Positions 19,481 through 21,795 of a DNA stretch of 64,000 nucleotides are shown here, piece by piece. The position numbers were made by a program, and so were the translations under genes. The notes beneath the pieces are model-generated. The model had not been told where the DNA came from and did no database searches. It saw nothing but the letters and a program-made list of their open reading frames with translations. Every line of letters starts with the position of its first letter. The first letter of the stretch is position 1. Source of the DNA: Curvularia clavata (lineage: Eukaryota); the NCBI GenBank assembly GCA_023920165.1, contig CP089277.1, forward strand, positions 2,790,001 to 2,854,000, in the 5' to 3' direction.

Positions 19481-21795
19481 TTAGATGATGTACTTCTCAT
19501 CTCTTCTATGGAGTCTTTTAGAGAGTCTGGGGAATTTACGGGCTAGAAGTGAACCATGCCTGTCCTTCTTTCTGGTAGTTTCTGGCGGTACAGCCTGTCT
19601 TGCCTCTTGTTGCATTGCTAAGAATTCCTCGCCGCAATTAATAGTGTGTGGGTGCTGGGAGCCTAGCGTTTGTATAAAGCCATTGTATGCTCGTTGGAAT
19701 AGCGGTTTAGCCTCTTCATGGCGCTTCAATTCGCATAAAAGGCCAGCGAGTGCCCACACAGCCAAGAATATGGTTGGATGTTGTTCTCCTAGCTCCTTCT
19801 CCATCCCCAATAGCGCCCGCCGTATTAGTTTCTCCGCCTCTGCGTACTTCTCTTGAGGCCGCAGCGCTAATGCTAAATTACCCATGCCAAATAGCGTATA
19901 GGGGTCGTGCTCTCCCAAGTGCTCTTCCATTTCTGCCACTACTCGCCAGCCTAGCTTCTCTGCTTCCTCGTACTTCCCTTGTCGATACAGCATTAGCACC
20001 AGGTTGCTCATGTTTACCAAGGTGGTTGGGTGGTGTTCGCCTAACTGCTCCTCCATTTGTGCCAGCACTCGCCGATGCAGCTTCTCTGCTTCATCGTACT
20101 TTCCTTGATGGTACAACACTGAAGCTAGGCAGTCCGTACTGGTCAGTGTCTGCAGGTCGTCTGGTCCAAATATACGCTCTCGAATTGTCATAGCGTTCGC
20201 TGCGATAGTTGCCGCTACTTCATAGCTCCCCTTCTGACCTAGGTACGATGCAGCGTTCGTGAGTATCTCCGCCCATGCCTTTGCCGTCTCTTCACACACT
20301 GGCTCACTATTGAATAAAGGCTCGATGTGTGGAAGTAGCCTCTGGCACTCTTCCCAATTCTCGTAGTCGCCACTAGGGAATTCTTCCGCCAGGAGCTGCA
20401 TAAACTGGCACCTCCACTGCTCTATTTTATCAAATGAGGATAGCCACACACGCGTGCAGAACTGTACCAGGGCATGCATTTCACATGCATCCTTGTCTGG
20501 TAGTACGTTGATTAGAGAGTATTTGTACAATACATCGAGGTCTTCATCGAATAAGGCATCAGCTTTGCTCGAGTCGTCTCCTATCTCTGCACCCGCTGAA
20601 GCTCTGCCGTAGTTCCGCAATGTCTTCACTGGGATTTCTTGAGGATTAAAGAAGCTCATTAACGACAGCAGGTCTGCTGCTGACAGTCTTTCGTGCTGTA
20701 TGCGTTCAAACGACATCTGCCATGTAGTTACTACTGAGTTTGCAGCGGTCCTATCTCGCCGTAGGTCGCCAGCGTCACAGTGAAGTAGGCTTTCTCGCCG
20801 CTCGTCATTCTCACGGAACTCGCGTATGTAGCTTGAAATAGTCATGCGCGCTCGCCGATTGATGTAGGCAGCAGCTTGGGTAATTGCAAGAGGCATATGG
20901 TCAAGAATGTGCACCAGCTCGACAGCGTCACTTTGATCGGCTGGAACAGGGGAGAGCTTATTGAGGAGCAGTTCGAGCCCTTGGCTCTCATCCATGGCTA
21001 GAACCTCTCTGGTATTCTGATAACCCCCTGCCAGCCTGGATGCTGCATCCCGGCTTCGTGACGTGATCAATATGGATCCATTACGGCTCTGAGGGAGGTA
21101 ATCCACGAGAGGAGTCGACAGTCCTTCAACAGCCTTGTCCTGTCCGACTCGTGGCAAAGGAAAGAACGTCTCTATGTCATCGGCGTTGTCGATCACCATA
21201 GACCATCGACCGTTGGCCTCATTAGATAGCCAGTCACTGACAAGCCGCAGCACATCGACTGTTGGGTCCTGATGGTCTAGTAACTGCAGTTTCTCGGCGA
21301 TACCTTGGTACGCTTCTTCGAAGCGCGCCCGTGTACTGGCATGTACCCAGAAGACGTAGGTGTCTGGCGCAGCGTCGCGGACCTGGTGAGCATGCTGAAT
21401 TGCAAGCTGCGACTTGCTGTACGCTATCAGTACTCTTGTTTGATAATGTTGAAGCAGACGTCATATCAAGGTCGACGTTAACTTACGCACCCCACCCCGC
21501 CGAGGCCCACCAGCGCCGCTCGAGCACCTGGTCTTGCGCACTTGTCGCGCACCCACGCAATGATATCTGGCCGATCAACGAAGTCGGGATCTGGCGCGAA
21601 CGGCACTGTGGAGAAAGGCTTGTGCGGCCGGTCAGATCTGTCTGTGAACGTCTCAGCGTTGTCATTTCAGTCGCTACCGCTGCACCTACAGTGGCCTGGC
21701 CGGTATGCGAAGTTGAAGTTGGTCGTTCCCCCTGCTGCGGTGTACGTGCCCGGGACCACGATACGGCCACCGATGTTTCCTTGGAAGGTGCTCAT
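19481..21795 (-). CDS. Fungal NLR-like protein: short N-terminal motif + NB-ARC + TPR repeats, 3 exons
   Basis: Exons 21795-21690, 21641-21491, 21416-19481 give FSTVPFAPDPDFVDR, P-loop GLGGVG|KS, VFWVHAS, Walker B WSMVIDNADD, ILITSR, MPLAITQAA, MHALV, then 42-aa TPR repeats. Confidence 0.88.

Follow-up and report, generated by a model that had tools for sequence, protein, structure and literature searches.

How could a fungal nucleotide-binding oligomerization domain-like receptor (NLR) that carries no effector domain pass on a signal? The question is raised by a gene on the reverse strand of a 64,000-nucleotide (nt) stretch of Curvularia clavata DNA (contig CP089277.1 of assembly GCA_023920165.1, positions 2,790,001 to 2,854,000; hereafter, the window). 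A preliminary description had noticed that this NB-ARC/TPR gene begins with a single small exon resembling an amyloid signalling motif. We put at about two in three the probability that the gene encodes the receptor of a system made up of two components, where its N-terminal motif would template the same motif on a separate effector, most likely acting in trans on an unlinked HET-domain protein encoded on contig C6 of the same genome.

Joining the three coding exons (Table 1) gives a single open frame of 730 amino acids (aa). The product reads MSTFQ...RPGH-YRSDRPHKP-FSTVPF..., with 35 codons ahead of YRSDRPHKP and then the NB-ARC lead-in FSTVPF, and the P-loop GLGGVGKS, split by the second intron, is restored across the junction by a 74-nt splice. 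This is the splicing proposed earlier; its first intron is seen in transcript-like contigs, while the second has weaker support (see below). Pfam recognized TPR_10 in five stretches of exon 3 and DUF7779 above cut-off; NB-ARC reached E = 0.15 on exon 3 alone and was above cut-off in the full-length homologues P0105 (E = 7e-7) and P0075. As had been noticed, no HET, HeLo, PNP_UDP or hydrolase domain precedes this region: the N-terminus is a motif of about 26 residues alone, with the pattern FxGxIxGxxVxPGTxxxxGGTxNFNF. Upstream of the start codon at 21795, the frame contains no other ATG back to its nearest stop (21924), and the 64-kb window has no second copy of the motif.

Searching the C. clavata genome with exon 1 returned three matches: the window itself, a paralogous NLR on contig C1, and the C-terminal 30 residues of a HET protein on C6. 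The latter, P0127 (G000:C6:707155-708030, reverse strand), is a single-exon product of 292 aa, unlinked to the window, with PF06985 (HET) as its sole Pfam domain (54.5 bits against a cut-off of 22.5) and the motif at its C-terminus. Its gene stands head-to-head with an intact NB-ARC-TPR gene carrying a diverged motif, with 228 bp from ATG to ATG. The identity to the tail of the HET effector was 16/26 for both the window and the C1 NLR, and 10/26 for the adjoining C6 NLR. Three further motif queries found no additional copy, and no PNP_UDP or hydrolase gene of the genome matched the motif part of the queries; since these own-genome searches score only the best candidates, the count of three NLRs for one effector is a lower bound. 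Because one intact motif-bearing effector was found in the genome, and it is unlinked, the window NLR would most likely signal in trans to the C6 HET protein.

Some details of the paralogous loci can be added here. In the C6 NLR (G000:C6:708259 onwards; L005:760-3306), the motif has diverged furthest among the three and intron 1 is lacking; its P-loop intron leaves the frame open, giving a frame of 880 codons. The C1 NLR (G000:C1:5867804 onwards; L002, L006), also unlinked, bears its motif, close to the consensus, on a separate exon, and no effector remnant was found in the 2 kb upstream of this gene. A separate exon for the motif, noted in the preliminary description, is common, though dispensable, as the C6 paralogue does without it. 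The HET protein has 54 matches in its own genome, among which C6 alone extends into the motif part of the query.

Then, we evaluated the conservation of the motif on receptors. The search for exon-3 homologues gave 120 hits, 47 of which were kept (Met start and P-loop) and 73 dropped, mostly unspliced frames; 34 of the kept homologues have a short N-terminus, and in 13 a domain is integrated, HET or SesA for example. With a profile built only from the C-termini of HET effectors (76 sequences), the 35 aa of the window scored 32.9 bits, against 10.7 for the best of 1000 shuffles, and with one built only from PNP_UDP effectors (26 sequences) they scored 29.9 bits, against 9.9. The HET-only profile gave about 20 bits or more in 23 of the 34 short-N-terminus homologues and in none of the 13 with integrated domains. 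In four short homologues that do not score, a PP core replaces the motif in the same N-terminal slot. To judge from the sequences, the NLR N-terminus is swapped as a module. The annotated homologues come from five fungal orders and have their Met only a few residues ahead of the motif; we take the genus labels of the homologues to belong to Pleosporales, Xylariales, Helotiales, Hypocreales, Eurotiales and Glomerellales.

Among other receptors, PP-type motifs stand at the N-terminal slot of the close NB-ARC-TPR homologues P0034, P0074, P0093, P0106 and P0115, and further close homologues bear fused HET, SesA or HeLo-like domains there. The motif also opens a NACHT protein (P0302), a WD40 fragment (P0276) and a 209-aa protein with no Pfam match (P0325).

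The same motif recurs at the ends of effectors. Among 120 HET relatives it is present in 77 (17 of them in the profile seed), lying at most 15 aa from the end in 73; it stands out as conserved after a linker that is not. Similarly, a motif-bearing query gave 120 PNP_UDP relatives, of which 26 end in the motif, all within 15 aa of the terminus. A profile of 34 instances (alignment A1) searched against a library of 1.84 billion representatives gave 87 hits; eight, repeat proteins with many weakly matching stretches, were set aside, and the 79 retained have one strong copy each, either just after the Met or at the C-terminus of a HET, PNP_UDP, alpha/beta-hydrolase or unassigned protein. Sorted by text patterns, 21 have an NLR after the motif, 29 are fragments with a Met just before it and no NLR, and the C-terminal classes comprise 6 HET, 7 PNP_UDP-like, 7 hydrolase-like and 9 unassigned proteins. 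Pfam placed PNP_UDP_1 above cut-off in three of the library hits and DUF676 in one; the motif-bearing hydrolase P0253 groups in the Atlas with DUF676 clusters that have sigma- or PP-bearing members. The motif is shared by three unrelated effector types, namely HET, PNP_UDP and SesB-like alpha/beta-hydrolase. The conservation at both the N-termini of related NLRs and the C-termini of effectors, together with the adjacent gene pairs described below, is the genomic signature of an amyloid-signalling motif, and fits the type proposed in the preliminary description.

Other C-terminal segments occur in this material. The PNP_UDP proteins P0357, P0367, P0370, P0371, P0376, P0394, P0396, P0403 and P0422, several from Trichoderma, carry a segment other than the motif, repeated twice (QGxSxFxxxVxxxxxVxQGN-like; by eye it recalls HRAM), and P0405, P0409, P0410, P0430, P0439, P0447 and P0448 yet another (SxNxFGxxxxIxQGD-like).

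What is new here is HET as an effector class of such a motif. A screen of 2012 sought amyloid pairs of HET and STAND (NLR) proteins and identified none (PMC3321046); in the survey of 2022, PF06985 served as a seed profile, yet it has no entry in the pair tables and is absent from the rows listed of nine supplementary files (PMC9815663). In the literature searched, in which most subscription papers were out of scope, HET effectors carrying a motif of this kind were not described. The usual alternative is the all-in-one architecture (HET-NB-ARC-TPR, HNWD), in which HET is fused to the NLR, as indicated by PF06985 in 8 of 120 close homologues; here it is separate and joined through the motif only.

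The motif was also compared with the known amyloid signalling motifs, and the earlier impression that it matches neither HRAM, PP nor sigma was borne out on 130 to 132 instances. Our first guess, PUASM (NLR32), was discarded, with FxGxGxQxxGxGxF in 0/130 instances. The same applies to PP/RHIM (G-phi-Q-phi-G in 0/130, NxGxQxGxN in 0/132, with the four PP-bearing homologues as positive controls), to sigma (sub-motif A, GxGxQFN, and strict GGTQN both in 0/132, and no three-fold repeat) and to HRAM1-5 (R/K15, hydrophobic residues at 16 and 18 and G19 in 1/132, and no double copy). A Pfam scan of 34 motif members matched no family to the motif, and the profile found nothing meaningful among PDB sequences (best E 0.17). 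The motif could still be a divergent instance of sigma or of HRAM3/NLR12: a loose sigma-B pattern (GGTxN-hydrophobic) occurs in 95 of the 132 instances, the motif ends in eight residues similar to sigma sub-motif B (GGTQNINT), and NLR12 too has unlinked PNP_UDP effectors. Nevertheless, Q never follows GGT, stored sigma- and PP-bearing proteins score below 0 bits with the motif profile, and the missing sub-motif A, HRAM ending, double repeat and Pfam match all make such an origin improbable.

Being outside the major motifs, the family deserves the label of poorly described class given to it at first, with the reservation that it resembles one minor predicted motif, PF01048_015, of Wojciechowski et al. 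2022. That source gives PF01048_015 four pairs and calls it PNP_UDP-specific, and the effector is PNP_UDP in 14 of the 15 rows listing its pairs (PMC9815663); it is probably, by our own reckoning, the "PUASM 2" of PMC12261475. Its NLR-side cluster CVK90632 has the pattern GPxFxxPVxGxNVVxG...FNF, with the same spacing and final FNF, and is identical to the window at 8 of 26 positions (ungapped, by eye). Most of its NLRs have the architecture NB-ARC(-TPR), the domain beginning at residue 40-52, and its PNP_UDP effectors are a class that also bears the present motif. The first-half pattern F...[VI].G..V[VI].G occurs in 102 of the 132 instances and in the window, the comparison being with the NLR-side cluster only. 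On the other hand, CVK90632 lacks the GGTxN core that is near-invariant in the present family, and the four PNP_UDP pairs there contrast with well over 100 instances here, with HET and alpha/beta-hydrolase effectors in addition. By eye and unscored, we judge the present motif to be the same family as PF01048_015 or a sister of it, so that it was probably glimpsed once before.

Known systems offer partial parallels. In the PP/RHIM system (PNT1-HELLP-SBP) there are likewise an NB-ARC-TPR receptor with a bare motif and a SesB-like effector, but the effectors here are HET and PNP_UDP, with no HeLo-like one seen. The sigma system (sesA/sesB/het-eN) similarly puts several effector types, including hydrolase and PNP_UDP, on one motif. 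NWD2/HET-S, HRAM1-5 and NLR12 share the logic of receptor N-terminus to effector C-terminus, and differ in that the present effectors have a single copy, no R15-phi-x-phi-G19 ending and no HeLo domain. Outside fungi, the bacterial BASS-TIR2 pairs, with BASS motifs on TIR2 effectors, recall the motif on fungal HET.

Adjacent effector and NLR genes are seen at C6 and at a metagenomic locus, L070, where HET and NLR genes stand head-to-head, 264 bp apart, with the motif on both; the window gene has only a relic. For three of seven named motif-bearing effectors, the S1 Table of PMC9815663 lists an NLR under the accession just below (KNG46804/5, OAK96859/60, KDN70604/5), accession order being a proxy for adjacency; the other four have no neighbouring NLR accession among the S1 Table rows listed. 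Beside the window NLR, a degraded stretch (Table 1) resembles the motif-bearing hydrolase P0253 with 47% identity over 38 aa and 34.7 bits, where the next best in the window scored 22.3 and the best of 100 codon-shuffled windows 27.3; its core is identical at 9 of 11 residues (22251-22283), and it was detected by one of four queries. The cognate partner of the window NLR was probably a SesB-like gene, since decayed. The preliminary description had supposed a partner either unlinked or lost; with this relic beside the NLR and the motif-bearing HET protein on C6, both therefore apply.

The gene model was further examined on transcript-like contigs assembled from four (X1 to X4) of 22 listed runs; X3 is recorded as RNA, and X1, X2 and X4 are presumed to be, with contig depths of 2 to 6 in the close runs and X4 from a diverged organism. 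The 48-nt first intron, with canonical ends, is skipped exactly (21641-21690) in X1 and X2; X4 shows the same skip with a one-base shift. This bears on the suspicion that the segment is merely a linker, with a further upstream exon encoding the real effector domain. The CAG directly before the ATG could suggest an acceptor; however, it does not act as one in the X1 contig, which is colinear up to 21815, 20 nt above the ATG. Moreover, the homologues of five orders have their Met close to the motif, the C6 paralogue has the motif without intron 1, and no HET or PNP_UDP remnant lies upstream. We regard such an annotation artefact as very improbable.

Several observations weigh against the window NLR being a working amyloid-type receptor of the HET protein. 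The first regard the motif itself: its instances have on average 2.4 prolines, flanks included, and few Q, a proline-rich and Q-poor composition that is unusual in amyloid cores. This composition, rich in Pro and Gly, would suit a homotypic docking or scaffolding segment that brings the effector to the NLR ring without self-propagating amyloid, as would its presence as a single copy in all 132 proteins checked. Consistent with this, the 2022 survey's 16 profiles for amyloid motifs match none of the homologues looked up, and OWY45267.1 and RFU31458.1, motif-bearing homologues with scannable N-termini, are "noasm" among the S1 Table rows available (PMC9815663). However, the position and pairing of the motif mirror those of validated amyloid motifs, its final eight residues are sigma-B-like, and PP occupies the same slot in four close NLR homologues. 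Single copies also occur on PNP_UDP effectors in NLR12, a system with several or many NLRs per unlinked effector (PMC9815663). On balance, docking without amyloid seems unlikely to us. Structure prediction was uninformative: AlphaFold gave the 35-aa monomer a predicted template modelling score (pTM) of 0.29 and no DSSP assignment, the complex of three NLR-side and three effector-side peptides had an interface score (ipSAE) of 0.01, which we used neither for nor against. The Atlas leads for the effector tail were all below 0.8.

Other contrary points come from co-occurrence and splicing. A metagenome scan for HET yielded at least 596 stretches; the motif was present in just one of the 80 loci examined, the above L070, the remaining 79 being mostly ordinary HET genes. 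An NLR hit lies on the same contig for 10 of 43 motif-bearing HET genes and 1 of 23 without the motif, a difference that is not significant (p = 0.08), on contigs of at least 5 kb with same contig inferred from equal length alone; three of the ten co-occurrences are on contigs below 18 kb. Since the gene once beside the window NLR apparently encoded a hydrolase, cross-talk of this NLR to HET is deduced from similarity. Regarding the second intron, the in-frame 74-nt skip appears in one X4 contig only, with 29 letters on the short side, while an X3 contig (perfect match, depth 2.4) skips 70 nt from a donor 4 nt further on, which shifts the frame and gives 147 aa without a P-loop; X1, X2 and X4 also contain contigs retaining the intron. 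Productive splicing of intron 2 is therefore weakly supported and, with depths of only 2 to 6 in the close runs, the proportions of its forms cannot be judged.

These data could also mean that the motif family is a genuine module whose window copy is orphaned and decaying, with its hydrolase lost, its second intron mostly mis-spliced and HET not usefully activated. The stop within the partner relic, the frameshifted and retained forms and the short TPR array point this way, as does the donor, which is GTGCGT followed by GTAAGT in the window and GTACGT at three related loci (the C1 and C6 paralogues and L070). Conversely, reading frame, P-loop and motif are all intact, intron 1 is spliced in three runs, and the window motif is nearer to the HET effector than is that of the effector's adjoining NLR. 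We consider an orphaned copy unlikely, if somewhat less so than mere docking. The 147-aa product keeps the motif, and intron retention gives one of 89 aa; such short products could be degraded, or could serve as free motif seeds or inhibitors.

By analogy with the NWD2/HET-S, PP and sigma systems, a mechanism for templated signalling by the window NLR can be proposed. The TPRs would sense a ligand, upon which the NB-ARC would oligomerize; the clustered N-terminal motifs could then nucleate a cross-beta assembly, which would template the same motif at the C-terminus of the separate effector. The original neighbour was probably the SesB-like hydrolase, and the three NLRs would now converge on one effector, the C6 HET protein. 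There, clustering of a TIR-related HET domain might trigger cell death, possibly by NAD+ cleavage. The tag common to the NLR start and the HET protein end suggests that the HET family can be activated through amyloid-type signalling.

Few cell-death domains are as abundant in fungi as HET, which often occurs in sole-domain proteins and whose activation and biochemistry are treated as questions in PMC10197012 and PMC12881547. It has been reported to be TIR-related and sufficient for cell death; a 2025 review lists its enzymatic activity as not determined, which counts against the enzymatic step. The predicted model of P0127 (predicted local distance difference test, pLDDT, 73.7) resembles TIR domains only weakly, in a tie with nucleoside deoxyribosyltransferases, with a best structural Z of 5.1; the tied top rows include RPS4/RRS1 TIR (Z 4.6, root-mean-square deviation 3.8, 96 aligned), TIR-1 (4.3) and SARM1 (4.2). 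Foldseek against the PDB gave no match at E<=0.001. Residues E88 and E91 of P0127 are nearly invariant in alignment A2.

More broadly, we lean slightly towards a barely noticed, widespread fungal amyloid family, in which NB-ARC-TPR receptors would activate HET (TIR-like) proteins that stand alone, as well as PNP_UDP nucleosidases and SesB-like hydrolases, and several receptors at scattered loci, the window gene included, would converge on one HET effector; this would be amyloid-gated activation of a TIR-type enzyme in a eukaryote. The motif family, so far four PNP_UDP pairs, would come to span three effector classes across several ascomycete orders. If true, the 292-aa single-exon HET protein with its seedable 26-residue tail would be an on-switch reagent for HET toxicity and NAD+ cleavage.

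Table 1. Features of the receptor gene and its immediate surroundings, in window positions
Feature	Position	Strand	Remarks
Coding exon 1	21690..21795	-	35 codons and 1 nt, encoding Met, the motif and a short tail
Putative amyloid signalling motif of the receptor side, core F4-F29	21709..21786	-	Alignment A1 and effector-only profiles
Intron 1, 48 nt, GTAGGT..CAG, phase 1, contains in-frame TGA	21642..21689	-	Skipped in contigs X1, X2, X4
Exon 2: NB-ARC lead-in (FSTVPF...) to GLGGVG of P-loop	21491..21641	-	
Intron 2, 74 nt, non-consensus donor GTGCGT; rival GTAAGT 4 nt downstream (70-nt frameshifting form)	21417..21490	-	
Exon 3: remaining NB-ARC, DUF7779, about five 42-aa TPRs, stop	19481..21416	-	Pfam
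Transcribed 5' leader, minimum extent	21796..21815	-	Contains start of 4-codon upstream open reading frame 21806-21792
Probable SesB-like alpha/beta-hydrolase relic	22212..22316	+	Divergent, head-to-head with NLR; one internal stop, motif gone

The short upstream frame of Table 1 overlaps the main ATG, and further out-of-frame ATGs lie at 21877 and 22000. Downstream of the NLR, a frame of 163 codons (18215-18706, forward strand) without a Pfam match lies in a stretch poor in long frames. The NLR is flanked by housekeeping genes: its neighbours to one side are an MFS transporter and ALG3, and to the other anthrone oxygenase and F-box genes.
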